Source: Trueperaceae bacterium (GTDB lineage Bacteria; Deinococcota; Deinococci; Deinococcales; Trueperaceae). Taken from it: DNA of 64,000 nt. The position numbers were made by a program, and so were the translations under genes. The notes below the pieces were generated by a model that saw only the letters and a program-made list of their open reading frames with translations, was not told where the DNA came from and searched no databases. Of this stretch, positions 1,181 through 17,960 are shown one piece after another (the first letter of the stretch is position 1; the number at the start of each line of letters is the position of its first letter). The DNA is taken from the NCBI GenBank assembly GCA_034520945.1, contig JAXHNB010000005.1, forward strand, positions 96,001 through 160,000, in the 5' to 3' direction.

Positions 1181-1219
1181 GCCGGGCGCGGGTGGGCCCC
1201 CCGCGGTATCGTGGCGGCC

Positions 1220-2038: not shown

Positions 2039-3195
2039 GCGACGACGCGCCTGAGACGCTGCACCCCGAGACGCTGGCCGTCCACGGCGGCCAGCGGCCC
2101 GACCCCGCCACCGGCGCCGTCGTGCCGCCCATTCATCCTGCGACGACCTTCGTCCGCAATGATGACGGCCAGCCGCGGGCCGGCTGGACGTACGCACGCA
2201 GCGGCAACCCCACCCGTGAGGCGCTGGAGGCGGCGTTGACGGCGCTGCAACCCGGCGCCGGCGCGTGCGCGGCGTTCGCGTCCGGCTCGGCGGCCGCAGC
2301 GGCGGTGATGCGGATCGTCGAGCCGGGCGGGCACGTGCTGCTGCCCCTCGACATGTACCACGGCATTCGGACGCTGCTGCAAGGGGAACACCGCCGCTGG
2401 GGCCTGACGGTCGCCTTCGTCGACATGGCGGACGCAGGCGCCGTCCAGGAGGCCCTCACGGACGGCGCCTCGCTGGTATGGATCGAGACGCCGTCCAACC
2501 CTCGCCTGCTGCTGACCGACGTGCGCGCGGTGGCCGAGGCGGCGCACGCGGCCGGCGCCCGGGTGGCGGTCGACGCCACCTGGACGCCGCCGCCGCTGCA
2601 GGACCCGTTCGCCCTGAACGCCGACCTGGTGGTCCATGCCACCACCAAGTACCTGGCCGGCCACAGCGACGTGGTGGGGGGTGCCGTGCTGGCCCGGTCC
2701 GAAGAGGACGCCGCCTTCGCGCGGGTGCGCTGGCTGCAGCGGCACGAGGGCGCGGTGCCGTCGCCGTTCGACGCCTGGTTGACGCTGCGGGGGCTCCGGA
2801 CGCTGGCGTTGCGCATGCGCGCGGCCTGCGCGGGCGCGGAACGCATCGCGGCCTTCCTGGCGGAGCACGACGCGGTGCTGGAGGTGCACCACCCCAGCCT
2901 GGCCACCCACCCGCAACACGAGCTGGCGCGCGCGCAGATGACGTCGTTCGGGGCGATGCTCAGCGTGCGGGTGCGGGGTGGCGCCGAGGCGGCGGCGCGC
3001 GTCGCGTCGGCCACCCGTTTGTTCACGCGCGCCACCAGCCTGGGCGGGGTGGAGAGCCTGATCGAGCACCGCGCGCCCGTGGAGGGGCCGGACACCGCCA
3101 CGCCGCCCGACCTGCTCCGCATCTCGGTCGGGATCGAGCATCCCGACGACCTGATCCGCGACCTGGCGCGGGCGCTCGGGCGCGTGGACGGGTAG
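2035..3195 (+). CDS. Cystathionine gamma-synthase/lyase family PLP enzyme (housekeeping-context paralog)
   Basis: [30 protein letters not shown] (PLP Lys), [15 protein letters not shown] overlap with hisF. Confidence 0.88.
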
Positions 3196-3205
3196 ACTCG
3201 GCCCC

Positions 3206-3856
3206 ATGCAGCCGTCTGGCAGCTCGTTTTCGATCGACGACGTCGCCTTCGGGCCGGAGGGCCTGGTGGCGGTGGTGGCGCAGGACGCCGATTCGGGCGA
3301 GGTGCTGATGCTGGCGTGGGCCGACCGCGAGGCGCTCGAGGCCACGCTCCGCACCCGCGACGCGCACTACCACAGCCGCTCGCGGGACGCGCTGTGGCGC
3401 AAGGGCGCCACCAGCGGGCACGTTCAGCGCGTCCAGGAGGTCCGCTTGGACTGCGACGGCGATGCCGTGCTGTACCGGGTGCACCAGCATGGCCCCGCCT
3501 GCCATACCGGCGCGAGGAGCTGCTTTCACCGCCCCATGGCCGGCGACGACGCGCCCACGCTGGGTGACGCCTTCGGGCTGCTGCAGCGCGTCGTCGACGA
3601 GCGCCTGCGCGAGCTGCCGGACGGGTCGTACGTCACGCGCTTGCACCGGCGCGGGCCGGGCTACGTGGCCCAGAAGGTGATCGAGGAGGCCGGCGAGACG
3701 GTCGTTGCGGCCCTGCAGCAGGAGGACGACGCGCTACGTGACGAGGCGGCCGACCTGTTGTTCCACCTCGCGGTGCTTCTGCGCGAGCGTGGCGCGTCGC
3801 TGGCCGACGTCGCGGCGGTCCTGGTGGACCGGCACCGCGTCCGCACCGAAGGCTGA
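3206..3856 (+). CDS. hisIE: Bifunctional phosphoribosyl-AMP cyclohydrolase / phosphoribosyl-ATP diphosphatase
   Basis: [45 protein letters not shown]. Confidence 0.95.
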
Positions 3857-3915
3857 GCCCCGCACGGGTCGGTACAACGCCCGCGCCGGCGGGCCGTTGC
3901 GGCATGGTGGGGACC

Positions 3916-4983
3916 ATGGACGACGCCTCGAACCGATCCGCCCGTGAGCAAGGATCCGCGCCGTCGCATCGCGCGACGGGGCCCGCCGAGCCGGACGCGG
4001 CCCGCACCGAGATGGAGCGGGCCCTGGTCCTCGACACGGTCCGCGTCACCGAGCAGGCCGCCATCGCCGCCAGCCGCGTCGCCGGCATGGGCGACGAGGA
4101 CCGGGTGGACCGGGCCGGCACCGAGGCCATGCGGCGCGTCCTGAACGAGTTGGACATCGACGGCGAGATCGTGATCGGCGAGGGGGAGCGCGACGAGGCG
4201 CCGATGTTGTTCACCAACGAACGGGTCGGCCGAGCGGGCCAAGGCGCCTGGCCGGTCGACATCGCCGTCGACCCGGTCGAGGGCACCGGCATCACCGCCC
4301 GCATGGTGAACGGTTCGGTGGCGGTGATCGCGCTGGCGGAGCGGGGCGGGTTGTTGCGCGCGCCCGACATCTACATGGACAAGGTGGTCGTTGGCCCGCC
4401 GGCGGCGGGGCGCGTCGATCTGGCGCGCCCCGTGGCGGACAACCTGGCCGCCGTCGCGGACGGCCTGGGGCGGCAGGTGCGCGACCTTACGGTGGTGATC
4501 CTGGACCGGCCCCGCCACGCCGAGTTGACCCAAGAGGTCCGCGAAGCGGGCGCGCGCGTCAAGCTGATCGGGGACGGCGACGTGATCACCGCGCTGGCGG
4601 CCGCGATCCGGGGCACCAGCGTGCACGCCGTGATGGGGACGGGTGGGGCGCCCGAGGGCGTGCTGGCGGCCGCCGCGTTGCGCTGCCTGGGGGGTGAGAT
4701 CCAGGGCCGTTTCGCGCCGCGCAACGACGACGAGCGCGGCCGGCTCCGGGCGGCCGGGGTGGAGGAGGGCCGCATCTACCACACGGACGAGCTGGCTCCG
4801 GGGACGCAGCTGGTGTTCAGCGCCACCGGCATCACGGACGGCGATCTGCTGCGGGGCGTGAAGTTCTTTCAGGACGGGGCCCGGACGCACTCGGTCGCGA
4901 TGGGGTTGCGCAGTCGCGTGATCCGTTTCTCGGACGCCGTGCACCTGCTGGAACCCGGGGCGCGGGTCAGCATCCAGTTGTAG
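3916..4983 (+). CDS. glpX: Class II fructose-1,6-bisphosphatase (alternative start at 4012)
   Basis: [58 protein letters not shown]. Confidence 0.95.
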
Positions 4984-5023
4984 GACGTCGGGTCGCCGTG
5001 CCCGTGCGCCTGGGGCGCGGCGC

Positions 5024-6187
5024 TCAGCGCACGAACAGGTCGCGCGGGAAGTCGGTGATGCGCTCGCCCCCCTCGGCGGTGACGCGGATGGTTTCGGTGC
5101 ACCCGATCCCCCCCTTGCCCGGCATCTGGACCCAGGGCAGAAGGTGAAACGTCATGTTCTCCTGCAGGGGACGGGTCTCGCCGGGCTTCATGCTGAGGAT
5201 CTGCCCCTCGCCCCAGTCGGGCGGGACGGCGATGCCGACGGAGTAGGCCACCCGCGACGCCTGCATGCCGCCGAAGCCGAACTCGGCGATCACCTGACGC
5301 GCGCGGTGGTCGACGTCGCCGGCGGGGACGCCCGGCGCGACCGTGGCCAGGGCGGCGTCGAAGGCCGCCTGGACGGCTTCGAACGCGTGGCGGGCGGCCG
5401 GGTCGGGATCGCCGATCATCACGGTGCGCATCATGGGGGCGTGGTAGCGGCTGCGGCAGCCGGAGATCTCGAGGAACAGGGTGTCCTGGGCTTCCAGGCG
5501 GCGTCCGGACCAGGTGGCATGGCCGATGGCGCCCCGCTCGCCGGAGGCGACGAACGGCACGATGGAGGGCCACTCGCTCCCGGCGCGGATCATGGCGGAC
5601 ATCACCTCCGCCGCCACGTCGTTCTCGGTGCTGCCGGCCCGGGCCGCGTCGACGCCGGCCTGCATGCCGGCCTCGGTGGTGCGTGCCGCGGCGCGGATGC
5701 GCTCGATCTCCAGGGGCGACTTGACGAGGCGGCCGGCCTCGACCAGCCCGGAGCCGTCGATCCAGTCGACCTCGGGGAGCAAGGAGAACAGGCGGTCCTG
5801 CTGGGCTGCCGTGAAGAACCAGCCGTCGCGTTCGTACCCGATCCGGCCCCGGTCGAGCCCCATGGCGGTCAGCTCGCCGACGAGGATCTTCATCGGATCC
5901 TGGTCGTCGCGGTAGCCGACGTTGTGCTCCGGCTCGATCCAGCTGAGGGCGTCCATGCCGCTGATCTCGAGCAGGCGCGACACCGCGGTGGGCTCGCCGT
6001 ACAGCGGCACGATCAGGCCCTGCCACCAGTAGTGCCCCGGGCTCTCGAAACCGGTGAGGTAGGTGATGTTCTCGGGCGTGGTGGTGATCATGGCAATGAC
6101 GCCGACGTCGTCCATGCGCTCGCGCAAGGCGCCTAAGCGAGCCTGGTACTCGCGGGTGGGGAAGGGAAGCCTGTCGTGGTCTCGCAT
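5024..6187 (-). CDS. Creatinase/M24-fold hydrolase, EutD/DoeA (ectoine hydrolase)-like
   Basis: LPFPTREYQARL N-terminus, KSPLEI, LEISGC..RYHAP..RT and PPDWGE motifs. The metal-binding Asp/His set of aminopeptidase P is not evident. Divergent from the ehu/eut operon; GGAG SD before the ATG. Confidence 0.75.
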   Translation of the reverse strand: MRDHDRLPFPTREYQARLGALRERMDDVGVIAMITTTPENITYLTGFESPGHYWWQGLIVPLYGEPTAVSRLLEISGMDALSWIEPEHNVGYRDDQDPMKILVGELTAMGLDRGRIGYERDGWFFTAAQQDRLFSLLPEVDWIDGSGLVEAGRLVKSPLEIERIRAAARTTEAGMQAGVDAARAGSTENDVAAEVMSAMIRAGSEWPSIVPFVASGERGAIGHATWSGRRLEAQDTLFLEISGCRSRYHAPMMRTVMIGDPDPAARHAFEAVQAAFDAALATVAPGVPAGDVDHRARQVIAEFGFGGMQASRVAYSVGIAVPPDWGEGQILSMKPGETRPLQENMTFHLLPWVQMPGKGGIGCTETIRVTAEGGERITDFPRDLFVR

Positions 6188-6235
6188 GTATGGACTCCCG
6201 TTCGCGGCGGTGCCGAACGTGGTCGGCGCGGCTGG

Positions 6236-6264
6236 TTGACAGGGGCGAGGCGTCCCCGTAGACT
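6236..6264 (+). promoter_or_regulatory. Sigma70-type promoter for the GntR-led ectoine operon
   Basis: TTGACA (6236-6241), 17 nt spacer, TAGACT (6259-6264). Confidence 0.8.
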
Positions 6265-6281
6265 TCGCACAGGTACGCAAC

Positions 6282-6291
6282 TTGTATACAA
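6282..6291. promoter_or_regulatory. Putative GntR/FadR-type operator
   Basis: Perfect AT-rich palindrome TTGTATACAA in a very GC-rich background; it matches the GT-Nx-AC GntR-family operator pattern and lies next to a GntR gene. Confidence 0.75.
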
Positions 6292-6307
6292 CCCCAATAC
6301 GGGTTGC

Positions 6308-6337
6308 ATTCTAAGTCGCCCGCCGCGCGCGGGTCAA
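6308..6337 (-). promoter_or_regulatory. Sigma70-type promoter for the EutD-like hydrolase
   Basis: Minus strand TTGACC (6337-6332), 18 nt spacer, TAGAAT (6313-6308). Confidence 0.7.
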
Positions 6338-6395
6338 TCGTTCACGCCGGCGTGGCCACAACGCACGCCTACGCGCCTCCCTCGAAAGGAGCTCC

Positions 6396-7070
6396 GTGCC
6401 AGAAGGCCGAGACGTGGGCTCGATCTACCGGCTGCTACGCGAGCGGATCGCGTTGCTCGACTACCCGCCGGGCACCCTCCTGAGCGAGAACCGTCTGGCG
6501 CGCGAATTCGGCGTCAGCCGTACCCCCATCCGGCGCGTGCTGCACCGGTTGGAGTTCGACGGGCTGGTCAGCGTCGAGCGGGGCGTCGGCACGCTGGTGA
6601 CGTCGGTCGACGTGCGCTACCTGAAGCAGGTGTACGATCTCAGGTTGGCGCTGACCCACGTGATCGCCGAGCTGGACCCGTCGTTGGTGTCGCAGGACGA
6701 GATCGAACGGCTGCGCCAGCTGCTGACCTCGACCCGGACGCTGGCCGGCACGGGCGACGCCTCCGGCCTGGCCCGCGCGTATCTGTACTTCAACGAGACC
6801 GTCACGCGGGCGATCGGCAACGAGCCGCTGCGCGAGATCGCCGACCGGCTGTTCTACCTCACCCAACGGACCTGGTTGGAGGCGCTGCCCGCCTTGGACT
6901 GGGACCACGAGGTCGAGACCGTCTGCAACGAGATCGAGGCCACCGCCGACGCGCTCGAACAGGGCGACATGCGCGCCGTCGCCGACGTGCGCCGGCACTA
7001 CATGATCGACTGCATCCATCGCGTCGGCACGTACCTTGGTACGTTCGACGCCACGAGCGAACCGTCATGA
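6396..7070 (+). CDS. GntR family transcriptional regulator (FadR/FCD type)
   Basis: YPPGTLLSENRLAREFGVSRTPIRRVL wHTH plus helical C-terminal domain, 224 aa; AAGGAG SD. Confidence 0.92.
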   Translation: MPEGRDVGSIYRLLRERIALLDYPPGTLLSENRLAREFGVSRTPIRRVLHRLEFDGLVSVERGVGTLVTSVDVRYLKQVYDLRLALTHVIAELDPSLVSQDEIERLRQLLTSTRTLAGTGDASGLARAYLYFNETVTRAIGNEPLREIADRLFYLTQRTWLEALPALDWDHEVETVCNEIEATADALEQGDMRAVADVRRHYMIDCIHRVGTYLGTFDATSEPS

Positions 7071-7122
7071 ACCGCCCGTCCACACCCCGATGGGGACCGG
7101 ACGCGGCCAAAGGAGGAACGAC

Positions 7123-8334
7123 GTGAACGAACGAGATCGGATCGGAACGGCGACGCGCGCCGTGTGGGGCGGCGAGGAGGTCGCCCGCGCGGGTGGGGCG
7201 ACCCAGGTGCCGGTGGTGCACAGCGTGTCGTTCGGCTACGACGACCTGGAGCACTGGCGCGACGTCGCCCTGGAGCGCACCGAGGGCCATATCTACAGCC
7301 GCAACACCAACCCCACCGTTGCGGTGTTCGAGGAGAAGATCCGGCTCCTGGAGGGGGCCGAGGCCGCCACCAGCTTCGCCACCGGGATGGCGGCGATCAG
7401 CAACACGCTGTTCACGCTGCTGGCCCCCGGCGACCGCGTCGTGTCGGTCAAGGACACCTACGGCGGCACCAGCCGACTGTTCCTGGACTGGGTGCCCAAG
7501 TTCGGCATCGACGTCGCACTGTGCGACACCGGCGACACCGAGGCCCTGCTACGCGAGATCGACGCGGGGTGCACCGTGCTGTACCTCGAGACCCCCACCA
7601 ACCCGACCTGCAAGATCCTGGACATCCGGCGCTTGGCGCAGCGGGCCAAGGACCGTGGCGCCACGGTGGTGGTCGACAACACCTTCGCCACCCCCGTCAA
7701 TCAGAACCCCCTGGCGTTGGGCGCCGACCTGGTGATCCACAGCGCGACGAAGTACCTCGGCGGCCACGCCGATGCCCTCGGCGGCGCCGTGTGCGGCGAT
7801 CAGGAACTCGTGATGCGCATCTTTCGCTTCCGCGAGGTGAACGGCGCCACGCTGCACCCCGAGGCCGCCTACCTGCTGCTGCGCGGCATGAAGACGCTCG
7901 ACCTGCGCATCGAGCGCCAGAACCACAACGCGATGGAGATCGCCCGGCACTTGGACGGGCACGACTTCGTGGAGCGGGTGTTCTACCCCGGCCTGCCCGC
8001 GCACCCCGGGCACGACGTCGCCCGCGGCCAGATGCGGGGCTTTGGCGGCATGCTGTCGTTTCAGCTGCCCGGCGACTTCGACACCGTCCGTACCTTCCTC
8101 CCCCGCCTCCGCTTCGCGCACCGCGCTGCCAACCTCGGCGCGGTCGAGACGGTGGTGGCACCGCCCCGCACCGGCAGCCACGTCGAGCTGACCGAAGAGG
8201 AGCGCGCCTCGCTGGGCATCCCCGAGACGCTGGTCCGCTACTCCGCCGGCATCGAGGACGTGAACGATCTGATCGGCGATCTCGACCAGGCGCTGGCCCA
8301 CGCCGCCGAGCGGCACCCCAGGCCCACGTCATGA
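7123..8334 (+). CDS. Cystathionine gamma-synthase family PLP enzyme inside the ectoine operon
   Basis: IYSRNTNPT, FATGMAAIS, YLETPTNPT, VDNTFATP, HSATKYLGGH (PLP Lys); AGGAGG SD before GTG 7123. Confidence 0.9.
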   Translation: MNERDRIGTATRAVWGGEEVARAGGATQVPVVHSVSFGYDDLEHWRDVALERTEGHIYSRNTNPTVAVFEEKIRLLEGAEAATSFATGMAAISNTLFTLLAPGDRVVSVKDTYGGTSRLFLDWVPKFGIDVALCDTGDTEALLREIDAGCTVLYLETPTNPTCKILDIRRLAQRAKDRGATVVVDNTFATPVNQNPLALGADLVIHSATKYLGGHADALGGAVCGDQELVMRIFRFREVNGATLHPEAAYLLLRGMKTLDLRIERQNHNAMEIARHLDGHDFVERVFYPGLPAHPGHDVARGQMRGFGGMLSFQLPGDFDTVRTFLPRLRFAHRAANLGAVETVVAPPRTGSHVELTEEERASLGIPETLVRYSAGIEDVNDLIGDLDQALAHAAERHPRPTS

Positions 8335-9380
8335 ACCTCTTCCGCGTCGCACTGGTCGGCTTCGGCACCGTCGGGCAGGGTTTTGCGCGGATCCTGCGGG
8401 ACCATGGCGAGGCCCTGCGCAGCCGTCACGGACTGAATGTTCGCATCACCGCGGTGTCCGACGTACGTCGCGGCAGCCTGCACGATCCCGAAGGCTTGGA
8501 TCTGGACGCCCTGCTGGCCGCGGTCGAGGCGGGCGGCACGCTGGCGGGCGTGTCCGCACGCGACCGCGACTGGGACGCGCTCACCACCATTCAGGGCGCC
8601 GAGGCCGACGTGATGGCCGAGCTGGCCTTCACCGACCTCGACAGCGGCGAACCGGCCCTCACGCACGTGCGTGCCGCCCTGACGCGCGGCCTGCACGTGA
8701 TCACCACCAACAAGGGACCGATCGCGCTGGCCTACCCGGAGCTGGCCGACCTGGCGCGGCGCCACGGCGTCCGCCTCGAGAGCGAAGGCACCGTGATGAG
8801 CGGTACGCCCGCCCTGCACCTCGGCACCGAACTCCTCGCCGTCGCCAACGTCACCCGCATCGAAGGGGTCCTGAACGGCACCAGCAACTACGTACTGACG
8901 CGCATGGAGGCCGGCCTCGACTTCGCCGCCGCGCTCGGGGAAGCGCAGGCGAAGGGGTACGCCGAAGCGGATCCCAGCGGCGACGTGGACGGGATCGACG
9001 CGGCGGGCAAGGTGGTGATCCTCGCCAACCGCGTGATGGGGGCCGAGCTGCGCATGGCCGACGTCCCCCGCGAGGGCATTCGCGCGCTCACCCCCGAACG
9101 GGTCGCCGAGGCGGCCGAGGTTCATGAACGCTGGAAGCTGCTCGGGAGGGTCCGGCGCGACGCGGACGGCAGCGTGCGCGCCGACGTCGCCCCGCGCCGC
9201 CTGTCCGCCACGCATCCCCTGGCCAGCGTCTCAGGCGCCAGCAACGCCGTGACCTTCACCACCGACCTGCTGGGCGACGTGACGCTGGTCGGCCCGGGCG
9301 CGGGCCGGCTCGAGACCGGCTACGCCCTGATCGAGGACCTGCTGGCGCTCCAGCGGCACCATGGAGGGACGCGGGCATGA
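8331..9380 (+). CDS. hom: Homoserine dehydrogenase, short form with no ACT domain
   Basis: GFGTVG Rossmann motif, VITTNKGP, GVLNGTSNYVL, GYAEADPSGDVDGIDAAGK, GPGAG; ATGA overlap with the upstream gene. Confidence 0.9.
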   Translation: MNLFRVALVGFGTVGQGFARILRDHGEALRSRHGLNVRITAVSDVRRGSLHDPEGLDLDALLAAVEAGGTLAGVSARDRDWDALTTIQGAEADVMAELAFTDLDSGEPALTHVRAALTRGLHVITTNKGPIALAYPELADLARRHGVRLESEGTVMSGTPALHLGTELLAVANVTRIEGVLNGTSNYVLTRMEAGLDFAAALGEAQAKGYAEADPSGDVDGIDAAGKVVILANRVMGAELRMADVPREGIRALTPERVAEAAEVHERWKLLGRVRRDADGSVRADVAPRRLSATHPLASVSGASNAVTFTTDLLGDVTLVGPGAGRLETGYALIEDLLALQRHHGGTRA

Positions 9381-10795
9381 AGATGCTGCTCGAAGATCGC
9401 TGGGTGGACCGCAATGAGCGCATCGAGGTGCGGAACCCCGAGAGCGCCGCGGTCGTGGACACGGTGCCGCGCGGGGACGCGGCCGACGCCGAGCGCGCGT
9501 TGACGCACGCCGAGAGCGGCGCGCGGGCCGCCGGCGCCCTGCCGGTGCACGAGCGCATGCGCATCCTTCACGCCGCGGCCGACGCCGTGCTGGACACGCA
9601 CGAGACGTTCGCGCGCCGGATCGCGACCGAGGGGATCAAGACCATCCGCGAGGCGCGCCGCGAGGCGACGCGGTGCGCCGACACGCTGCGCCTGTCCGCC
9701 GAGGAGGCCCGCCGCGCGCACGGCGAGACGGTGCCGTTCGACCAGCGGCCCGGCTCCGAGGGGCGCGTCGGGTACTGGCGTCCCGTCCCGGTCGGCATCG
9801 TGGTGGCCATCACGCCGTTCAACGACCCGCTGAACCTGGTCGCGCACAAGCTGGGGCCCGCCTTGGCGGCCGGCAACGCCGTGGTGCTCAAACCCGACTC
9901 GCGCACGCCCCTCTCCGCCCTGGCGTTGGCGGAGGTCCTGTTCGAGGCGGGGCTCCCAGACGGCATGCTGCAGGTGATCACCGGCCCCGGCTCGGACATC
10001 GGGCCGACTCTGGTCGGCGACCGGCGCGTGCGGACCGTATCGTTCACCGGCGGGCGCGACACCGGCGAGCGGATCGCCCGGCAGGCCGGCCTGAAGAAGC
10101 TCAGCATGGAGCTCGGCTCCAACGCGCCGGCCCTGGTCATGGAGGACGCCGACCTCGACGTGGCGGTGCCCGCCTGCGTCGCCGGCGCCTTCGCCGCGGC
10201 GGGCCAGAACTGCCTGCACGTTCAGCGCGTGTTCGTGCACCGCGCCTGCGCGGACGCGTTCACGGCCCGATTCGTGGAGGGCGCCCGGGCGGTGCGGACC
10301 GGCCCCAAGCTCGACGAGGCCACCGACATGGGGCCCATGATCGACGAGGAGGCCGCCCGGCGCGTCGAGGCCCTGGTGCAGGACGCCGCCGGCGCCGGGG
10401 CCGAGCTGCTGCAGGGTGGGACGCGCGAGGGCAGCGTCATGGCGCCCACCGTGATGGCCGGGGTACCGCCCACGCACGAGCTGGCGCGCGACGAGGTGTA
10501 CGGCCCCGTGACCCTGATCGAGACGTTCCGTGATCCCGCCGAGGCGGTCGCGCGCGCCAACGACGTGGACTTCGGACTCCAGGCGGGGGTGTTCACCCGC
10601 GACCTCGCCGCCGCGCACCGCCTGGCCGACGCACTCCGCTACGGAGGCGTTATGATCAACGACAGCAGCGACTATCGCATCGACGCCATGCCGTTCGGCG
10701 GATTCAAGGGATCCGGCCTGGGGCGGGAGGGCGTACGTTTCGCGATGGAGGCCATGACCGAACCGAAGCTGGTGTGCTTCACGCTGTCCCCTTGA
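9377..10795 (+). CDS. NAD(P)-dependent aldehyde dehydrogenase
   Basis: [22 protein letters not shown] (catalytic Glu), GQNC (catalytic Cys), [20 protein letters not shown]. Confidence 0.92.
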
Positions 10796-10844
10796 CCGGC
10801 CTGGCGGGCGCTCGAGGCACACCCACTCCGCGAAAGGGCTCGAC

Positions 10845-11681
10845 GTGAGCGATTCCCACGCTTCCCCCGTGACCGCCCCCGAGCGCGCGAAGACGTCCGC
10901 GCCCGACGGCCGTCCGCCCATGATCGTGTTCGACAAGGTCCGCAAGGCGTTCGGCGACCTGGTGGTGCTCGACGACCTCGACTTCCAAGCGGCCGAGAAC
11001 GAGAAGGTCGCCATCATCGGGCCCAGCGGCTCGGGCAAGACCACCATCCTCCGCGTGCTGATGACGCTGGTGCGGCCCGACCGCGGTCACGTGTACGTGG
11101 ACGGCCAGTCCCTGTGGCACATGAACGTGGGCGGCAAGGAGGTGCCCGCCACCGAGAAGCACCTTCACGCCATCCGCAGCGACATCGGCATGGTGTTCCA
11201 GCACTTCAACCTGTTCCCGAACATGAACGTGCTGCGCAACGTCACCGAGGCGCCGGTGCACGTGCGCGGCGTCCCGAAGGCCGAGGCCCGCCAGCGCGGC
11301 CTGGACCTGCTCGAGATGGTGGGGCTCAGCGACAAGGCCGACGCGTTTCCCGAACAGCTCTCTGGCGGCCAGAAGCAGCGTGTCGCGATCGCACGGGCGT
11401 TGGCGATGGAACCGAAGGTGATGCTGTTCGACGAGGTCACCAGCGCGCTGGACCCAGAACTGATCGGCGAGGTGCTGGCCATCCTGCGCAAGCTGGCGAC
11501 CGAGACCCAGATGACGATGCTGATCGTCACGCACGAGATGGGCTTCGCCAAGGACGTCGCCGACCGCGTGATCTTCTTCGACGCTGGGCAGGTGGCGGAG
11601 GAGGGCCCGCCCGACAAGATGTTCACCCAGCCGGAGAACCCTCGCACCCAGGAGTTCCTGCGGGCGGTGCTTCAGCACTAG
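10845..11681 (+). CDS. ehuA: Ectoine/hydroxyectoine ABC transporter ATP-binding protein
   Basis: [47 protein letters not shown]; EhuA-type insert ([18 protein letters not shown]); operon context. Confidence 0.88.
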
Positions 11682-11726
11682 GCACGGCCGTGCCGGAGCT
11701 GAAGGGTGAACCGCTCTTCATCGCGA

Positions 11727-11756
11727 TTGGACGCCGGGGCCGGTTCGCGCTATCCT
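11727..11756 (+). promoter_or_regulatory. Possible internal promoter upstream of ehuB
   Basis: TTGGAC, 18 nt spacer, TATCCT within a 325-nt intergenic gap. Confidence 0.4.
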
Positions 11757-12006
11757 GGGTCACGCCGGTGTCCGCAGGCGCTCGACCTTGCCGCGCCACG
11801 AGCGTCGCGCCCCATGGAACCATTCCCCCCAGGTGCGCGACGTCCTCGCGGAGAGGCATGCGTGAGGCGCACGCCACGGAGCGGCCCCCCCGGGCTGCCT
11901 CCGCGCACGTCACCGGCGCTGTCCCGCCGATGGACGGGCCGGCCGACATACGCGCAGCGGCGACCCGCCGCCTGCGTTTCGCCCAGCAAGATCGGAGGTT
12001 CGACAC

Positions 12007-12867
12007 ATGAACAGCGGATTCGCACGCCTTCTCGCCGCCACGCTGCTGCTCGGCATGATCATGAGCTTCGGCTTCGCCCAGCGCTCCCTGTCCGAGATTC
12101 AGGAGAGCGGCCAGGTCACCGTCGTCACCGCCAACGAGATCCCCTACGGGTGGATCGACGACGACGGCGTGCCGCACGGCATCGCCCCCGAAACCGCCGT
12201 GGCGGTGCTCGAGAGCATGGGCATCGACGACATCGAGTGGACCGTCACCGAGTTCGGCTCTCTGATCCCCAGCATCCTGGCCGGCCGGGCCGACATGACG
12301 GCCGCCAGCATGGCGATCCTGCCGGAGCGCTGTGAGCAGGTCGACTACGCCCGCCCGAACTCCAGCTACGGGGAAGGCTTCCTGGTCGAAGCCGGCAACC
12401 CCAAGGACATCCACAGCTACGAGGACTTCCTCGAGAACCCCGACCTGACCATGGGCATCGTGTCCGGCGCGGACCAGCTCGAGTTCGCTCAGGAGATCGG
12501 CATTCCCGGCGGCCAGCTGTCGTTCCTGAACGCCAACGCCGACGCGCCCTCGGCCGTCGTCACCGGCCGCATCGACGCCTACGCCGCGACCAGCGCGACG
12601 GTCGCCGAACTGGCGGCCAGCTCCGATCGCGTGGAGGGCGCCGATCCGTTCGAAGCCCCCATCATCGGCGGCGATCCGGTCCGCAGCTGGGGCAGCTTCA
12701 ACTTCCACCCCGAGGCGGACGCCTTCCGCACAGCCTTCGACGAGGCGCTGGGCGAGTTCCAGCAATCCGACGAGTGGCGCGAGATTCACCTGAGCCACGG
12801 CTTCACCGAGTCGGACGTGAACTCCGCCCTGGCGGCGAGCACCGAGGAGCTCTGCAGCCCCGAGTGA
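12007..12867 (+). CDS. ehuB: Ectoine/hydroxyectoine ABC transporter substrate-binding protein
   Basis: Signal peptide; ANEIPYG, TEFGSLIP, MAILPERCEQV, GNPKDIHSYED, terminal TEELC; GGAGG SD. Confidence 0.88.
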   Translation: MNSGFARLLAATLLLGMIMSFGFAQRSLSEIQESGQVTVVTANEIPYGWIDDDGVPHGIAPETAVAVLESMGIDDIEWTVTEFGSLIPSILAGRADMTAASMAILPERCEQVDYARPNSSYGEGFLVEAGNPKDIHSYEDFLENPDLTMGIVSGADQLEFAQEIGIPGGQLSFLNANADAPSAVVTGRIDAYAATSATVAELAASSDRVEGADPFEAPIIGGDPVRSWGSFNFHPEADAFRTAFDEALGEFQQSDEWREIHLSHGFTESDVNSALAASTEELCSPE

Positions 12868-12874
12868 CCCGCCC

Positions 12875-12902
12875 GCAGGCCCGCTTCGGCGGGCCTGCTT
12901 TT
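12875..12902 (+). terminator. Intra-operon stem-loop / intrinsic terminator after ehuB
   Basis: GCAGGCCCGC-TTCG-GCGGGCCTGC, a perfect 10-bp stem with a UUCG loop, followed by TTTT. Confidence 0.8.
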
Positions 12903-12965
12903 CTATCTTGGTTCCCCGCCGTATGACGTTCGGCGCTCCGCCGGACCGCGACGCCTGGAGGCCTC

Positions 12966-13637
12966 GTGGAAGACCTGCAGCAAATGCTCACCCCCTTGAT
13001 GCGGGGTACGGTCGTGACGCTGCAACTCGCGCTGATCTCGACCGTGTTCGGCGGCATCCTCTCCTTCGCCGCCGGCATCGGCAAGCTGTCGCAGAACGGG
13101 TTCGTCCGGGCGGCGTCGGTCGCGTACATCGAGATCTTCCGCGGCACCTCGCTGCTGGTCCAGATGTTCTGGCTGTTCTTCGCGTTGCCGATCATCGGCG
13201 TCCGGTTCGAGCCCATGACCGCCGGCATTCTGGCTCTCTCGCTCAACATCGGGGCGTACGGCGCCGAGGTGGTCCGCGGTGCCATCCAGTCCGTGCCCAC
13301 CGGCCAGTACGAAGCGGCCGTCGCCGTGAACTTCACGCGGCGCTTCACCCTCTGGAACGTGGTGCTGCCCCAGGCACTGGTCGAGATGATGCCGCCGTTC
13401 GGCAACCTGGTCGTCCAGAACCTGAAGGACACCGCGCTGGTGTCGCTGATCACCCTGGGTGACCTGACCTTTCGCGCCCAGAACTACCGCAACCTCACGC
13501 TCGAGACCATTCCCGTGTTCACCGCCACGCTGTTGATCTACTTTGCGCTGGCGCTGGTGCTCATGGGGGTCATGCGCTGGCTCGAAGGGTGGATCGCGCG
13601 GCGCGTCGGCGTGGTGCACGGCAGGGCGAGCGCCTGA
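12966..13637 (+). CDS. ehuC: Ectoine/hydroxyectoine ABC transporter permease
   Basis: YIEIFRGTSLLVQMFWLFFALP, GAYGAEVVRGAIQSVP.GQYEA. Confidence 0.88.
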   Translation: MEDLQQMLTPLMRGTVVTLQLALISTVFGGILSFAAGIGKLSQNGFVRAASVAYIEIFRGTSLLVQMFWLFFALPIIGVRFEPMTAGILALSLNIGAYGAEVVRGAIQSVPTGQYEAAVAVNFTRRFTLWNVVLPQALVEMMPPFGNLVVQNLKDTALVSLITLGDLTFRAQNYRNLTLETIPVFTATLLIYFALALVLMGVMRWLEGWIARRVGVVHGRASA

Positions 13638-14329
13638 TGCTGTTCGGCATCGAGTGGGACACCAGCACCACCCTAAGCTTCGCCACCACGATCTTCCCGA
13701 TCCTGTTGCGCGGGTTGTGGGTCACCCTCCAGGCGACCGTGCTGGGCTTCGCCATCGCCCTGGTAGTGGGCCTGATCCTGGCGCTGCTCCGCATGGCGCC
13801 CAGCCGCCTCGTGTCGTGGCCCGTCGCCGTGTTCCTGGAGTTCGTGCGCGACACGCCGCTGCTGGTGCAGCTGTACTTTTTGTTCTTCGTGCTGCCCGAG
13901 ATCGGCATCGTGCTGCCGGCGTTCCTGACCGGCGCGATCGCGCTGGGCATCCAGTACTGCGGCTACACCGCCGAGGTGTACCGCGCCGGCATCGAGGCCA
14001 TCCCGCGCGGCCAGTGGGAGGCCGCCACCGCCCTCAACATGCCCGCCCGCCTGACCTACCGGCACGTGGTGGTCCCGCAGGCGATCCCTCGGATCGTCCC
14101 GGCGCTGGGCAACTACCTCGTCTCCATGCTCAAGGACACCGCCATCCTGTCCGCCATCACCGTCCTGGAGATGCTGTCGGTCGCCAAGATCATCGGCGAC
14201 CGCACCTTCCGCTACTTCACGCCCATCACCATGGTTGGCGCGCTGTTCCTGATCGTCACGCTGGCCTCGGCCTGGCTGGTCCGCATCATCGAACACCGCC
14301 TGCCGAAGACCGGCATTCCGCTGCGTTGA
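13637..14329 (+). CDS. ehuD: Ectoine/hydroxyectoine ABC transporter permease
   Basis: MLFGIEWD, EFVRDTPLLVQLYFLFFVLP, YTAEVYRAGIEAIPRGQWEA; TGATG overlap with ehuC. Confidence 0.88.
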   Translation: MLFGIEWDTSTTLSFATTIFPILLRGLWVTLQATVLGFAIALVVGLILALLRMAPSRLVSWPVAVFLEFVRDTPLLVQLYFLFFVLPEIGIVLPAFLTGAIALGIQYCGYTAEVYRAGIEAIPRGQWEAATALNMPARLTYRHVVVPQAIPRIVPALGNYLVSMLKDTAILSAITVLEMLSVAKIIGDRTFRYFTPITMVGALFLIVTLASAWLVRIIEHRLPKTGIPLR

Positions 14330-14333
14330 ATGC

Positions 14334-15341
14334 ATGCATGATCCCCTGCCCCCCTCGGCCCGGGACGTGTGGCGCGCACGCGCCCGCATCCAAGGGCTGA
14401 TTCGGCGCACCCCCCTGCTGCCGGCCCCCGAGTTCGCTGCGCACGACGGCGCTGCGCCGGCCGTCTGGATCAAGGACGAGACGCGGCAGCCCACCGGCGC
14501 GTTCAAGATCCGTGGCGCCGCCAGCGCGTTGCGCGCCTTGCCGGACGACGTCGTGGCGCGCGGCGTGGTCGCCGTCTCCACCGGCAATCACGGCCGGGCC
14601 GTCGCGCACGTGGCGCGCGCCCTCGGCGTCCCCGCCCGCGTCTACGTCTCCTCGCGCGTGCCCCCCGACAAGCTGGACGCCCTCCGCGCCGCCGGCGCCC
14701 GGGTCGAGGTGCACGGCGATTCGCAGGACCAGGCCGAGGACGCCGCCCGCGCCCGCGTGGAGACGGACGGTGGCACGCTGATCCCGCCGTTCGACCACGT
14801 AGGCGTCATCGCCGGCCAAGGCACCCTCGGCCTCGAACTGCTGGAGGACCTGCCGGACCTTGACACCGTCCTCGCGCCCCTCTCCGGCGGCGGCCTGATC
14901 GCCGGCGTGGCGCGCGCCGTCAAGGCCGTCGCCCCCGACGTGCGCGTGGTGGGCGTATCGATGGAGGCCGGCGCCGCCATGCACGCCAGCCTGTCGGCGG
15001 GCCGCATCGTCGAGACGCCGGAGGCCGACACGCTGGCCGACAGCCTGCAAGGGGGGCTCGGGCGAAGCAACCGCTACACCTTCGCGCTGGTGCGCGCGCT
15101 GGTCGACGACGTGCTCTTGGTCGGCGAACGCGCGCTGGCCGAGGCGATGCGCCACGCCTTCCACCACCACCGGCTGGTCCTGGAGGGAGGCGGCGCCGCG
15201 GCCCTGGCGGCGCTGACCTCCGGCGCGACCCACGTGCGCGGGCCCACAGCCGTGATCGCGTCGGGATCCAACGTCGGCGCAGGGGCGTTCGCGCGGGTGC
15301 TGAGCGGCCGCACGCCTGCTGGAGAGGAACATCGCGCGTGA
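14334..15341 (+). CDS. eutB: Hydroxyectoine utilization dehydratase (threonine dehydratase fold)
   Basis: KDETRQPTGAFKIRGA, STGNHGRA, GDSQDQA, SGGGLIAG, TLADSLQGG; follows ehuD. Confidence 0.85.
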   Translation: MHDPLPPSARDVWRARARIQGLIRRTPLLPAPEFAAHDGAAPAVWIKDETRQPTGAFKIRGAASALRALPDDVVARGVVAVSTGNHGRAVAHVARALGVPARVYVSSRVPPDKLDALRAAGARVEVHGDSQDQAEDAARARVETDGGTLIPPFDHVGVIAGQGTLGLELLEDLPDLDTVLAPLSGGGLIAGVARAVKAVAPDVRVVGVSMEAGAAMHASLSAGRIVETPEADTLADSLQGGLGRSNRYTFALVRALVDDVLLVGERALAEAMRHAFHHHRLVLEGGGAAALAALTSGATHVRGPTAVIASGSNVGAGAFARVLSGRTPAGEEHRA

Positions 15342-16291
15342 ATCAGGTGCGGGTGCTGGCCAAGGACGAACTGGTTCGCCAGGCGCCGCTGACGCTCGAA
15401 GTGGCGGACGAGATCGCCGACGGGTTCGAGCGCCTGGCCGCCGGCGAGGTGCGGCAGCCCCCGGTGACGTCATTGGAGATCCCCGAGGCAGAGGGCGAGC
15501 TGGACGTCAAGACGGCGTACGTGCCCGGCTGGGACTCGTTCTGCGTCAAGTTGTCCACGGGCTTCTTCCGCAACCCGGAGCTGGGCCTCCCCTCGGCCTC
15601 GGGCCTGATGGTGGTCCTGTCGGCCGAGACGGGCCGCCCCTTGGCGGTGCTGCTGGACGACGGCTACCTCACCGAACTCCGCACCGCCGCCGCCGGCGCG
15701 GTCGCCGCCGACGCCTTGGCGCGGCCCGACGCCCGCCACGTCGCCATCCTCGGGGCCGGTGCGCAGGCCCGCTGGCAGCTGGACGCGCTCCGCCTGGTGC
15801 GCAACGTGACGCACGTGGACGTGTGGGCGCGCCGCCCCGCCGCGGCCAAAGCCTTCGCCCGGGCCGCGCGCAAGGAAACCGGCCTGATCGTCACGCCCAG
15901 CACGAGCGTCGCAGACGCGGTGGCCGACGCCGACGTCGTCGTCACGGCCACGCCTGCGCGGGAGCCGCTCCTCTACGCCGACATGCTCCCCCCCGGCGTG
16001 CACGTCACCGCCATGGGGGCCGACGCCGCCGGCAAGCGCGAACTGGCCGCGGACGTGCTGCGCGCGGCCGACGTGCTGGTGGTCGACGCGCTGGCGCAGA
16101 GCCGCACCCTCGGCGAGCTGCAGCACGCCGACGACGCGACGGCCGCCAGGGCGATCCTGCTCGGCGACGTGCTGGCGGGCGAGGCCCCCGGCCGGCGCAC
16201 GGATGCCGACGTCACCGTCTGCGACCTGACGGGCACCGGCGTGCAGGACACGGTCGTCGCCCGCTGGGTGTTGGCCCGACTGGAGGGGTAG
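15338..16291 (+). CDS. eutC: Ornithine cyclodeaminase-family ectoine utilization protein
   Basis: GELDVKTAYVPG, STGFFRNPELGLPS, GYLTELRTAAAGA, DLTGTGVQD. Confidence 0.85.
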   Translation: MNQVRVLAKDELVRQAPLTLEVADEIADGFERLAAGEVRQPPVTSLEIPEAEGELDVKTAYVPGWDSFCVKLSTGFFRNPELGLPSASGLMVVLSAETGRPLAVLLDDGYLTELRTAAAGAVAADALARPDARHVAILGAGAQARWQLDALRLVRNVTHVDVWARRPAAAKAFARAARKETGLIVTPSTSVADAVADADVVVTATPAREPLLYADMLPPGVHVTAMGADAAGKRELAADVLRAADVLVVDALAQSRTLGELQHADDATAARAILLGDVLAGEAPGRRTDADVTVCDLTGTGVQDTVVARWVLARLEG

Positions 16292-16637
16292 GAGCCGGGA
16301 GGCGCCGCGCCGCGGTGTCACGTGGGTGGTTCGTTCGTGAGCCCCTTGCAACTGCGCGAGGCTGCATAGGTCCGTGTACTAGGCGCATACGTCTCACCAT
16401 CCCGTCAGCGCCGAACATACGCCCCCCTGGGGCCCAGTGCCGCGCCGACGGCATGCGCCACATGTGGCACATTCGGCCGCGAAACGCGCGCACGTTTCGG
16501 GGCAGCCCGCAGGTGCCTCCCCGCGGGGCGGTGGGCGGTACGCTGGCCGGCGGACCGGTGGGGCCCTCGTGCGTCGCGACCGCCGCGACGGGACCCCCCT
16601 TGCACCACGCACCTTCGAGCCTTCGAGGAGGATCCCC

Positions 16638-17636
16638 ATGCCCATCCGCCACGTACGTCTCGGCACGCACGGCGTGCTCGTCAGCAACCTGTGCCTCGGC
16701 ACCATGAACTTCGGGTGGCACACCTCGCAAGAGGATTCGTTCCGCATCATGGACCGCGCGCTGGAGCTCGGCATCAACTTCTTCGACACCGCCGACGTGT
16801 ACGGGCGCGGCGGGCAGCACGGCGACACCGAGATCATCCTCGGCAACTGGTTCGCGCAGGGCGGGGGGCGCCGGGACGCCGTCGTGCTGGCCAGCAAGGT
16901 GTACAACCCGGTGCAGCGGGACGAGAACCGCCCGGAACCGAACACGGACGGGCGCAGCCTGTCCGCGTACAAGATCCACAAGCACGCGGAGGGCAGCCTG
17001 CGGCGCCTGCAGACCGACCGCATCGATCTCTACCAGATGCACCACATCGACCGGAACTGCCCATGGGACGAAGCGTGGCAGGCCTTCGACAGCCTGGTGC
17101 AACGCGGTCACATCGTTTACGTCGGGTCCAGCAACTTCGCGGGCTGGGACATCGCCACCGCCTGTCAGGAGGCGTCCAAGCGCGGCCGGATGGGCCTGGC
17201 CAGCGAGCAGAGCATCTACCACCTGAACAACCGCACCGTCGAGCTGGAGGTCATTCCCGCCTGCGAGCACTACGGCCTCGGCCTGTTGCCGTGGAGCCCG
17301 CTGGGTGGCGGCCTGCTCGGCGGCGCGCTCGGCAAGATCGACGAGGGGCGCCGCATGAGCGACAGCTTCATGAAGCGCCTGGAGATGGAGCGCGACAAGA
17401 TCGAGCGCTACGAAGCGTTGTGCCGCGAGCTGGGCGAGGAGCCGGCCACGATCGCCCTGGCCTGGCTGCTGCACGTGCCCGCGGTCACGGCGCCGATCAT
17501 CGGGCCACGCACCGTCGAACAACTGGAGAGCGCGGTGCGCGCCACGGAAGTCACCCTCGACGAGGCGACGTTGGCGCGCCTGGACGAGATCTTCCCCGGG
17601 CCCGGCGGGGACGCGCCGGGGGCGTACGCCTGGTAA
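16638..17636 (+). CDS. Aldo/keto reductase
   Basis: LCLGTMNFG, GINFFDTADVYG, SLRRLQTDRIDLYQMHH, LPWSPLGGGLL; GAGGAGG SD. Confidence 0.93.
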   Translation: MPIRHVRLGTHGVLVSNLCLGTMNFGWHTSQEDSFRIMDRALELGINFFDTADVYGRGGQHGDTEIILGNWFAQGGGRRDAVVLASKVYNPVQRDENRPEPNTDGRSLSAYKIHKHAEGSLRRLQTDRIDLYQMHHIDRNCPWDEAWQAFDSLVQRGHIVYVGSSNFAGWDIATACQEASKRGRMGLASEQSIYHLNNRTVELEVIPACEHYGLGLLPWSPLGGGLLGGALGKIDEGRRMSDSFMKRLEMERDKIERYEALCRELGEEPATIALAWLLHVPAVTAPIIGPRTVEQLESAVRATEVTLDEATLARLDEIFPGPGGDAPGAYAW

Positions 17637-17717
17637 GGGGCGAGGGTCGGCAGGAGGGTGCGCCACATGCGGCGCACCCTCGCCGCAAGCGCGCGACCCG
17701 ACGACGCACCATGCACG

Positions 17718-17751
17718 TAGATCCGCCCCCGACGAATCGGAGGCGGATCTA
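17718..17751 (-). terminator. Stem-loop downstream of tRNA-Ala
   Basis: Minus strand TAGATCCGCCTCCGA-TTCG-TCGGGGGCGGATCTA, a 15-bp stem with one G.U pair; no U-tract. Confidence 0.55.
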
Positions 17752-17781
17752 AGCAGCTACCGTGTGGGACGGCGTTTCCGC

Positions 17782-17857
<76 letters not shown>

Positions 17858-17868
17858 AAGCGTTCTGG

Positions 17869-17897
17869 AGCGTACCGCAAGGCTCGGTAGGTGTCAA
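17869..17897 (-). promoter_or_regulatory. Sigma70 promoter of tRNA-Ala
   Basis: Minus strand TTGACA, 17 nt spacer, TACGCT. Confidence 0.8.
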
Positions 17898-17960
17898 CGA
17901 ACCGCGACGCAGACGCGCGGTGTCGCGGGGGGAGGGGCGCGCGGGGGTATGCTTGGGGCG

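Follow-up and report, generated by a model that had tools for sequence, protein, structure and literature searches.

A 64,000-nucleotide stretch of a Trueperaceae genome (GCA_034520945.1, contig JAXHNB010000005.1, positions 96,001 to 160,000; here called the window) contains a gene cluster that is probably a GntR-controlled operon for the import and catabolism of ectoine and, via EutB and EutC, of hydroxyectoine, in which a lower pathway through homoserine would depart from the canonical one. The source bacterium is a salt-tolerant member of the Truepera family. In saline waters and soils, ectoines rank with the most abundant organic osmolytes; once released, they serve as a source of carbon and nitrogen. 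Searches using Pfam and NCBIfam found ehuABCD, the EutB-, EutC- and M24-type genes and three inserted genes at the places assigned to them in an initial annotation of the sequence. The inserted genes encode a pyridoxal phosphate (PLP) enzyme of the Cys/Met family, a homoserine dehydrogenase (Hom) and an aldehyde dehydrogenase (ALDH).

In the proposed pathway, EhuABCD would import ectoine or hydroxyectoine, the divergently transcribed DoeA-like M24 hydrolase would open the ring to yield N-acetyl-diaminobutyrate, and an enzyme encoded outside the cluster would remove the acetyl group. The PLP enzyme, which belongs to the PRK08249 family, would then eliminate the γ-amino group of L-2,4-diaminobutyrate (DABA) and hydrate the resulting vinylglycine intermediate to give homoserine and ammonium, by analogy with canavanine γ-lyase. 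Finally, Hom would convert homoserine to aspartate semialdehyde, and the ALDH would convert the semialdehyde to aspartate. The PLP/Hom/ALDH triad would thus stand in for two canonical enzymes, Atf/DoeD (transaminase) and Ssd/DoeC (dehydrogenase).

The proposed homoserine module

The window has a G+C content of ~71%, and reading frames were picked by third-position G+C. Genes were identified using Pfam for 21 proteins and NCBIfam for 13. The three inserted genes lie on the plus strand: the PLP enzyme gene at 7123-8334 (Cys_Met_Meta_PP; NF006097, PRK08249, 662.4 bits against a cut-off of 600), with its start taken from a 403-aa database copy; the Hom gene at 8331-9380 (NF004912, 416 bits against 373); and the ALDH gene at 9377-10795 (Pfam Aldedh; no NCBIfam equivalog passed). 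The ATGA overlaps described in the initial annotation are real, joining PLP to Hom at 8331-8334 and Hom to ALDH at 9377-9380.

A precedent for these steps is found in canavanine catabolism. Work by Hauth et al. 2022 (PMC9533460) demonstrated in vitro that a PLP enzyme of the Cys/Met family releases hydroxyguanidine from canavanine by elimination and forms homoserine through hydration of the vinylglycine intermediate; small amounts of 2-oxobutanoate arise as well. In the Pseudomonas pathway reconstituted there, an NAD-homoserine dehydrogenase, either of two ALDHs and an aspartase take homoserine to fumarate via aspartate. The same paper cites γ C-N bond formation by this enzyme family (LolC, Mur24). 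A Rhizobium leguminosarum locus (L100) encodes a B3/4 protein, four ATP-binding cassette (ABC) proteins, a PLP enzyme, a small multidrug resistance (SMR) exporter, Hom, ALDH, DapA and aspartase. Its architecture matches the description in that paper; the strain and protein accessions differ from the ones assayed.

Identity to the L100 proteins was 48% for the window Hom, 51% over the full length for the ALDH and 37% for the PLP enzyme; the binding proteins were unrelated. Hom was 47-50% identical to the products of Rhizobium plasmid genes, and the cluster Hom and ALDH were the best hits of the rhizobial canavanine-cluster proteins in this genome. A second Hom, encoded on contig C5 (C5:327942-328838) and 35% identical to that of the cluster, is presumably the housekeeping copy. 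We infer that the cluster Hom is a second, catabolic-type homoserine dehydrogenase that converts homoserine to aspartate semialdehyde, and propose that the ALDH converts the latter to aspartate. The initial annotation had the inserted genes lead from an upstream compound through homoserine and aspartate semialdehyde to aspartate, which the identities of Hom and ALDH to the rhizobial pair render plausible. The branch from homoserine to aspartate has experimental precedent in the in vitro reconstitution of the corresponding Pseudomonas enzymes. Homology thus gives good overall support to this branch.

The cluster as a whole was rejected as a canavanine operon. At 37%, the identity of the L100 lyase homologue to the cluster PLP enzyme is close to the 34% that it shares with the MetB-like paralogue of this genome, the binding protein is unrelated, and a search of 5024-17636 using Pfam and NCBIfam detected no guanidine exporter of the Gdx/SMR type. 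Canavanine degradation is retained as a mechanistic precedent.

The PLP enzyme and its gene neighborhoods

The PLP enzyme scored 662 bits against NF006097; the next family, methionine γ-lyase, scored 377. NF006097 carries no assigned activity, its members being named 'cystathionine gamma-synthase family protein'. The best PDB hits of the enzyme were methionine γ-lyases (320 bits). The residues of the Pseudomonas putida enzyme that we take to be catalytic, Tyr58, Arg60, Tyr113, Glu156, Asp185, Ser207, Thr209, Lys210 and Arg372, map to invariant positions, and this holds for family members with and without an adjoining deacetylase gene. The specificity residue Cys116 is replaced by Gly115 in the window enzyme, and Ser340 by Asn337.

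To survey gene neighborhoods, relatives of the PLP gene were collected from one genome per species. Among 600 candidate stretches, 582 were confirmed and the best 80 loci were kept, encoding PLP enzymes 63-80% identical to the window copy. These loci were queried with the window proteins, the M20 and M24 proteins of Priestia and the DoeA, DoeB and MocR proteins of Klebsiella (tblastn, E ≤ 1e-15, coverage ≥ 60%, with an identity floor for each protein). Forty-two of the 80 had at least 8 kb on each side of the PLP gene and are referred to as fully flanked. A DoeA-like M24 gene lay near the PLP gene in 44 of the 80 loci (10 of the window type, 32 of the DoeA type and 2 other) and in 30 of the 42 fully flanked ones. 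The corresponding numbers were 29 and 21 for Hom together with ALDH, 25 and 17 for EutB or EutC, 25 and 17 for a Priestia-like M20, and 4 and 2 for a DoeB-like gene. No ectoine-type neighbor was detected in 32 of the 80 loci, or in 12 of the 42. Genes for DoeA-like hydrolases and the PLP gene recur together across many phyla.

The gene order of the window was repeated exactly in two loci from Trueperaceae metagenome-assembled genomes (MAGs; L026 and L047). On the Priestia megaterium plasmid pBMV_1, the order is PucR, EutB, PdxS, M24, cyclodeaminase, PLP (62% identical), M20, Hom and ALDH; the series M24-EutC-PLP-M20-Hom-ALDH occurred on this plasmid and in ~25 Bacillota loci. A Klebsiella plasmid carries EhuABCD, MocR, DoeA, DoeB and PLP genes, with the PLP gene (product 61-62% identical) in the usual position of DoeD. 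DoeB-like genes also adjoined the PLP gene in Chloroflexota and Bdellovibrionales loci.

Two further PLP genes were observed. A MetB-like cystathionine γ-synthase gene at 2035-3195 (+) lies between hisF and hisIE (1211-3856), with glpX next (3904-4983); its product scored 426 bits against NF005871 (cut-off, 513) and is a paralogue of the cluster PLP enzyme, ~35% identical. On an Anaerolineaceae MAG contig, the PLP match (L050:6788-7999) contains one stop codon, which may reflect pseudogenization or a fault in the assembly; this sequence was left out of the PLP alignment (A3). The L050 locus also has two tandem EhuB-like genes.

Canonical lower-pathway genes in the genome

The genome assembly comprises 10 contigs totaling 3.47 Mb and is 97.4% complete with 5.1% contamination. 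The initial annotation had reported that the window lacks EutE/DoeB, a DABA transaminase, EutA and EnuR. These absences extend to the whole 97.4%-complete genome: profile searches found no EutE/DoeB above its family cut-off and, in the 8 of 10 class-III aminotransferase places scanned, no DABA transaminase above such a cut-off. For EutE/DoeB (TIGR02994), the best genome-wide score was 76 bits against a cut-off of 402.7, and the cut-off was passed in 0 of 61 genomes of the window's family. DoeB queries from Klebsiella and from a Leisingera plasmid, our canonical ectoine reference locus for identities, retrieved just 27-30% identity in three AstE/AspA-family genes. The M20-type DoeB2 (NF038260) had no match in the genome at 1e-10, its control being positive in 10 of 14 genomes, and the M20 of the Priestia cluster found nothing at 1e-8.

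Class-III aminotransferases matched 10 places in the genome. Eight were scanned, the other two being pieces of one locus (C5:623601-624873). None of the eight reached a DABA transaminase cut-off, the best being a 'dat' match of 284 bits against 401.6, and the scanned proteins were rejected as a hidden DABA transaminase; a general transaminase might still do this step. The Leisingera Atf query gave ≤ 31% identity in the genome. EutA had no match either by profile, for which the control was silent, or by tblastn with Leisingera EutA. EnuR of Klebsiella or Leisingera had no full-length match in the genome, and the GntR/FCD regulator stands in its place. A search for ectoine synthase in the genome also came back empty, with its control equally silent. 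Using Leisingera Ssd, the cluster ALDH was 39.6% identical, and a 47.8% hit lay outside the cluster (C5:52833-54221).

The three AstE/AspA proteins were rejected as a hidden DoeB in view of their 27-30% identity and of neighbors unrelated to ectoine, namely metallophosphoesterases and a sugar ABC system, or a short-chain dehydrogenase/reductase and a peptide ABC system. As a separate observation, a module of AstE/AspA and a 429-aa metallophosphoesterase is duplicated, its copies lying 17 kb apart (G000:C2:61800-64417 and C2:78900-81262; L107 and L108).

Importer and putative hydroxyectoine branch

The importer genes follow the ALDH gene on the plus strand: ehuA, for the ATPase (10845-11681; TIGR03005, 395 bits against a cut-off of 345.4); ehuB, for the substrate-binding protein (12007-12867; TIGR02995, 241 against 190.9); and ehuC and ehuD, for the permeases (12966-13637; TIGR03004, 270 against 197; and 13589-14329; TIGR03003, 314 against 205). 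The EhuD start is uncertain; its alignment with the family sets in at residue 22. All four subunits scored above the NCBI ectoine-specific equivalog cut-offs. Membership in the EhuABCD family is thus observed, and the imported ligand would be ectoine or hydroxyectoine. The best PDB relative of EhuB was the Sinorhizobium meliloti EhuB (2q88/2q89, 124 bits; next hit, 70). At the five positions that presumably contact the ligand, Glu21 and Arg85 were invariant in 17 of 17 homologues and positions 24 and 60 were aromatic. Position 80 was Ala in the window protein and seven others, Asn in one and Tyr in eight. The Tyr group includes the Klebsiella EhuB encoded beside DoeA and DoeB, and the S. meliloti EhuB is also aromatic there.

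Downstream, 14334-15341 (+) encodes an EutB-like PLP dehydratase of the threonine-dehydratase family, and 15338-16291 (+) an EutC-like reductase of the ornithine-cyclodeaminase/mu-crystallin family; the two genes are joined by a GTGA overlap. Both proteins fell just under their equivalog cut-offs (NF005680, 390 bits against 413; NF006141, 404 against 408). They were 49.5% and 50.6% identical to Leisingera EutB and EutC, respectively. The EutC-like gene is single-copy in the genome.

Three other features lie in or beyond this part of the cluster. A GC-rich hairpin followed by a T-run, resembling a terminator or attenuator, occurs 3' of ehuB at 12875-12898 (+), with a 10-pair stem containing 9 GC pairs and the tail TTTTCTATCT. 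An aldo-keto reductase gene at 16437-17636 was counted outside the cluster because neither of the two syntenic relatives conserves it. Beyond it is a tRNA gene (17785-17857, minus strand; Rfam RF00005, 66 bits).

Hydrolase and divergent control region

The hydrolase gene (5024-6187, minus strand; Pfam Peptidase_M24 and Creatinase_N) starts at the ATG at 6187, with GGGAG upstream, and not at 6280. The initial description of its product as EutD-like held insofar as this is an M24 protein with DoeA as its best solved relative (6twj/6twk, 190 bits; prolidases, ≤ 107), but the protein scored far below both ectoine-hydrolase cut-offs: 376 bits against 575 for NF038259 (ectoine_DoeA_2) and 239 against 613 for the EutD model. 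The hydrolase was 33-34% identical to the DoeA proteins of Klebsiella, Priestia and Leisingera, and 54-76% identical to its counterparts in 10 related loci, which together form a divergent window type of M24 protein. From what we take to be the five-metal-ligand motifs of M24 peptidases, the hydrolase departs in the alignment as DoeA does. These shared departures argue against a role as a peptidase or metallo-deacetylase. Homology and context lead us to propose that the hydrolase is the enzyme that opens the ring of ectoine or hydroxyectoine.

A divergent control region of 208 bp (6188-6395) separates the hydrolase gene from that of the GntR/FCD regulator (6396-7070, plus strand; Pfam GntR and FCD). 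It contains two sigma-70-like sites, 6236-6264 (+) and 6337-6308 (-), which are the sole such sites in 4900-17900. Between them, at 6282-6291, lies a perfect palindrome, TTGTATACAA, which has a single occurrence in the 64 kb of the window, where 0.02 would be expected. Nine related loci in which the hydrolase gene diverges from a matched GntR gene were checked for the palindrome core, TGTATACA, which occurred once per locus at the same intergenic place in eight of them (all but L050). In 12 loci (Trueperaceae, Deinococcaceae, Chloroflexota and unclassified MAGs), the place of the regulator gene is taken by one whose product is 41-65% identical. The arrangement fits a single candidate GntR operator governing both transcription units. 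Co-regulation is probable because the sole promoter-like sites and the window-unique palindrome, conserved in 8 of 9 loci, all lie in the hydrolase-gntR gap. The locus is a genuine, conserved operon of ectoine type, probably co-regulated, with a replaced lower pathway.

In a relative, G194, a gene for a 73%-identical hydrolase is divergent from an OpuAC-type ABC importer (L115, G194:C2:294001-314000; 9527-13973), with toxin-antitoxin genes (AbiE, HipA) on the other flank and no PLP, GntR or Ehu genes beside it. The OpuAC neighbor fits a compatible-solute substrate for this hydrolase, not necessarily ectoine.

Substrate of the PLP enzyme and the deacetylation step

The initial annotation had envisaged a deacetylase-independent step. 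This part of the proposal finds no support in the gene neighborhoods, as PLP genes with 61-80% identity adjoin DoeA and DoeB genes in Klebsiella, an M20 gene in Bacillota, and DoeB-like genes. A deacetylase candidate was present in 28 of the 44 loci with a DoeA-like M24 gene. Because 19 of the 30 fully flanked loci of this kind carry such a candidate, free DABA is a likelier substrate of the PLP enzyme than N-acetyl-DABA.

We also scanned 37 of 127 candidate neighboring frames in 17 loci without ectoine genes. In three of these (L044, L076 and L084), an ArgE/DapE-type M20 gene immediately precedes the PLP gene; in three further loci, it is adjoined by genes for other amide hydrolases, namely a CN-hydrolase, an S58 peptidase and a polysaccharide deacetylase, respectively. 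Most likely, there is one substrate across the PLP family, made by deacylation, and this would be free DABA. The γ C-N bond formation ascribed to LolC and Mur24 makes the reverse elimination conceivable.

A homologue of the ArgE/DapE-type M20 is encoded elsewhere in the genome, on contig C6 (C6:271843-272976), and is 37-41% identical to the L044, L076 and L084 copies. In the relative G219 (L114, C2, 9801-12124), genes for a PLP enzyme (75%) and an ArgE/DapE-type M20 (56% identical to the C6 copy) form a convergent pair, neighbored by 5-oxoprolinase-type and subtilase genes, with no ectoine genes nearby. Distribution was evaluated in 61 genomes sampled more densely from the window's family, the unpublished genome G213 among them, using Fisher tests uncorrected for kinship. 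Orthologues of the C6 M20 (≥ 47% identity) were present in 12 of the 23 PLP-gene carriers and in 2 of the 38 other genomes (p = 4e-5). Among the carriers, 7 of the 9 that have no hydrolase gene had an orthologue, as did 5 of the 14 that have one. The C6 M20 is thus more closely associated with PLP genes lacking a hydrolase partner than with those that have one, and was set aside as the missing deacetylase, remaining a lead only.

Two peptidases encoded in the window ~40 kb from the cluster were also rejected as the deacetylase, both being unlike the cluster-linked M20 proteins: an M42-type peptidase (54526-55707) and an M20/M42-type peptidase with no equivalog (60015-61202). The former gene (+ strand) encodes a protein nearest to the 'osmoprotectant NAGGN system' model TIGR03106 (321 bits against 398) and may be osmolyte-related.

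Alternative readings of the cluster

Several observations weigh against the homoserine pathway proposed here. To our knowledge, no PLP enzyme eliminates an amine from a γ-carbon. In the searches described above, the genome yielded no DoeB over its cut-off, no DoeB2-type M20 and no counterpart of the Bacillota-cluster M20, and the sole deacetylase candidate is the unlinked C6 M20, present in 5 of the 14 family genomes with hydrolase and PLP genes. The hydrolase has 33-34% identity to proven-type DoeA and lies under both NCBIfam cut-offs, and the window EhuB is without the third aromatic residue of the presumed ligand cage. Moreover, the PLP gene has no ectoine-type neighbor in 12 of the 42 fully flanked loci, and four loci (L020, L021, L023 and L024) have the arrangement hydrolase-GntR-PLP-EhuABCD without Hom or ALDH, with EutB in two. 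For the PLP enzyme itself, the elimination of ammonia from free DABA to give homoserine is a tentative assignment, its prospects falling slightly short of evenly balanced.

Deacetylation might instead be bypassed, with two enzymes leading from ectoine to homoserine. In this scheme, the M24 hydrolase would open the ring to N-γ-acetyl-DABA, which has a free α-amine, and the PLP enzyme would eliminate acetamide and hydrate the product, dispensing with both deacetylase and transaminase. The known deacetylase types were not found in the genome, EutE exceeding its cut-off in 0 of 61 family genomes; 16 of the 44 loci with a DoeA-like M24 gene have no deacetylase candidate; and the core in four relatives consists of hydrolase, PLP enzyme and importer only. 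According to an excerpted review, Halomonas elongata DoeA was reported to give both α- and γ-N-acetyl-DABA (ADABA), the γ isomer not being a substrate of DoeB (PMC5924519). A match to FmdA_AmdA (acetamidase/formamidase) was found in 14 of 14 genomes with hydrolase and PLP genes against 27 of 47 others (Fisher p = 0.0025). Nevertheless, the FmdA-like gene of this genome is unlinked and weak (68.5 bits against 500 for formamidase), and a typical FmdA-type query, from G171, matched no gene in any of the 80 PLP loci. Later work on DoeA reportedly found the α-ADABA isomer only. Further, the same PLP family, with invariant catalytic positions, stands behind DoeB or an M20 elsewhere, the window-type hydrolase adjoins a DoeB-like gene in two Chloroflexota loci, and an amide nitrogen would be expected to be a poor leaving group. 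On balance, we consider release of acetamide unlikely.

The solute itself may have been misnamed. The Ehu and Eut designations could be annotation carry-over, the substrate being another γ-substituted 2-aminobutyrate or a cyclic amidine or guanidine, such as canavanine or another compatible solute. The hydrolase, EutB and EutC are under their equivalog cut-offs, EhuB has Ala where the S. meliloti and Klebsiella proteins have an aromatic residue, and the triad resembles the canavanine module. The OpuAC-type importer beside the 73%-identical G194 hydrolase, where there is no PLP gene, and the 12 of 42 loci with a PLP gene and no ectoine genes point the same way. Nonetheless, all four Ehu subunits exceed ectoine-specific cut-offs, EhuB and DoeA are the best solved relatives by wide margins, and EutB and EutC are ~50% identical to canonical-cluster proteins. 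As for canavanine, the PLP enzyme has 37% identity to the lyase homologue, the binding proteins are unrelated and a guanidine exporter was not detected in the cluster. Finally, the PLP gene is clustered in Klebsiella with genes that NCBI names DoeA and DoeB. A different solute is thus more doubtful still. It is more improbable yet that the PLP enzyme is a true γ-lyase producing 2-oxobutanoate and ammonium, with Hom and ALDH used otherwise, for example to balance the aspartate-semialdehyde and homoserine pools. Its nearest solved relatives are indeed methionine γ-lyases, the canavanine lyase makes some 2-oxobutanoate (PMC9533460), and the Klebsiella locus and four Deinococcota loci have the PLP gene without Hom and ALDH. 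Against this function speak the translational coupling of PLP, Hom and ALDH genes by ATGA overlaps, the finding that Hom and ALDH come after the PLP gene in 21 of the 42 loci with full flanks, and the homology of these two enzymes to the pair of a pathway that starts at homoserine.

Distribution, novelty and significance

The nearest named homologues of the cluster proteins, and the nearest loci, belong to Trueperaceae, Deinococcales and Deinococcaceae MAGs, and the lineage described at the outset as Deinococcota-like fits the Trueperaceae/Deinococcales origin of the closest named proteins. In a sample of 201 Deinococcota genomes, 41 from the window's own family and 160 from other families, NF006097 exceeded its cut-off in 15, all of them among the 41 and 0 among the 160. 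In the denser family sample, this was the case for 23 of 61 genomes. Loci with the PLP-gene variant were also found in Bacillota, Chloroflexota, Bdellovibrionota, Actinomycetota and enterobacterial plasmids. Another non-canonical Eut cluster, with no DoeB annotated, was observed on plasmid pRtrCIAT899b of Rhizobium tropici CIAT 899 (L111, 3785-17576). Its genes encode a class-III aminotransferase, M24, AsnC, an M20 metallopeptidase, EutB, EutC, a second M24, a C45 peptidase, an aminotransferase and an ALDH.

The novelty suggested in the initial annotation is reduced by a recent paper (AEM 2026, PMC13188858), whose excerpts list putative, tentative clusters of Bacillota and Actinomycetota, 'pucR-eutBCD-atf, abgB-thrA-adh', from which eutE is absent. 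These Gram-positive clusters are presented there without a mechanism and with the PLP gene called a transaminase; the excerpts propose no homoserine route, and mention neither cystathionine-family enzymes nor Deinococcota. By gene order only, the 'atf' of the excerpted clusters would be the PLP gene. Our literature search found no publication linking ectoine to a Cys/Met-family lyase or a homoserine route, and none of the listed co-mentions of Truepera and ectoine concerned catabolism.

Surveys that count ectoine consumers by EutD and EutE would miss the PLP/Hom/ALDH variant. If PRK08249 enzymes convert diaminobutyrate to homoserine, this would be a new PLP reaction and would assign a function to a large, unnamed family now called 'cystathionine gamma-synthase family protein'; the 'atf' label in the excerpts of PMC13188858 would be corrected, and a transaminase-free link between diaminobutyrate and homoserine would become usable in metabolic engineering. 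Were the acetamide route true, the pathway would be free of both deacetylase and transaminase, and the enzyme would perform the first PLP γ-elimination with a nitrogen leaving group.

Comparison with known systems

The PLP enzyme shares the fold-type I Cys/Met family with methionine γ-lyase (P. putida, 1gc0), and its PLP lysine aligns, as do Tyr58/Arg60, Tyr113, Asp185 and Arg372. It falls in a separate NCBIfam family, and its context in the window is ectoine catabolism rather than sulfur metabolism. The canavanine γ-lyase pathway of Pseudomonas canavaninivorans and Rhizobiales likewise has a PLP enzyme leading to homoserine, Hom and ALDH leading on to aspartate, and a four-subunit ABC importer and regulator beside the module. 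It differs in that the window PLP enzyme, at 37% identity, belongs to another NCBIfam family and the binding protein is unrelated; in that the window cluster has no guanidine exporter, aspartase or DapA; and in the leaving group, which is O-linked there and would be N-linked here.

The Gram-positive cluster, as excerpted from PMC13188858 and exemplified by P. megaterium pBMV_1, shares with the window the PLP gene (62%), Hom (thrA), ALDH (adh), EutB, EutC and M24, and has no eutE. In contrast, the window has neither an abgB-type M20 nor PucR, and its hydrolase is of another M24 subtype (33% identical). The canonical Doe/Eut systems comprise DoeABCD of H. elongata and EhuABCD/UehABC-EutABCDE-Ssd-Atf-EnuR of S. 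meliloti and Ruegeria pomeroyi. Unlike these, the window is without EutE/DoeB, Atf/DoeD, EutA and EnuR/AsnC, its regulator is of the GntR/FCD type, its hydrolase is 34% identical and its ALDH 39.6% identical to Ssd, and it adds a Cys/Met-family PLP enzyme and Hom. The window and the canonical systems have in common EhuABCD, EutB- and EutC-like proteins (~50%), an M24 hydrolase with DoeA as the closest solved structure and, as the proposed end of the pathway, aspartate formed via aspartate semialdehyde.

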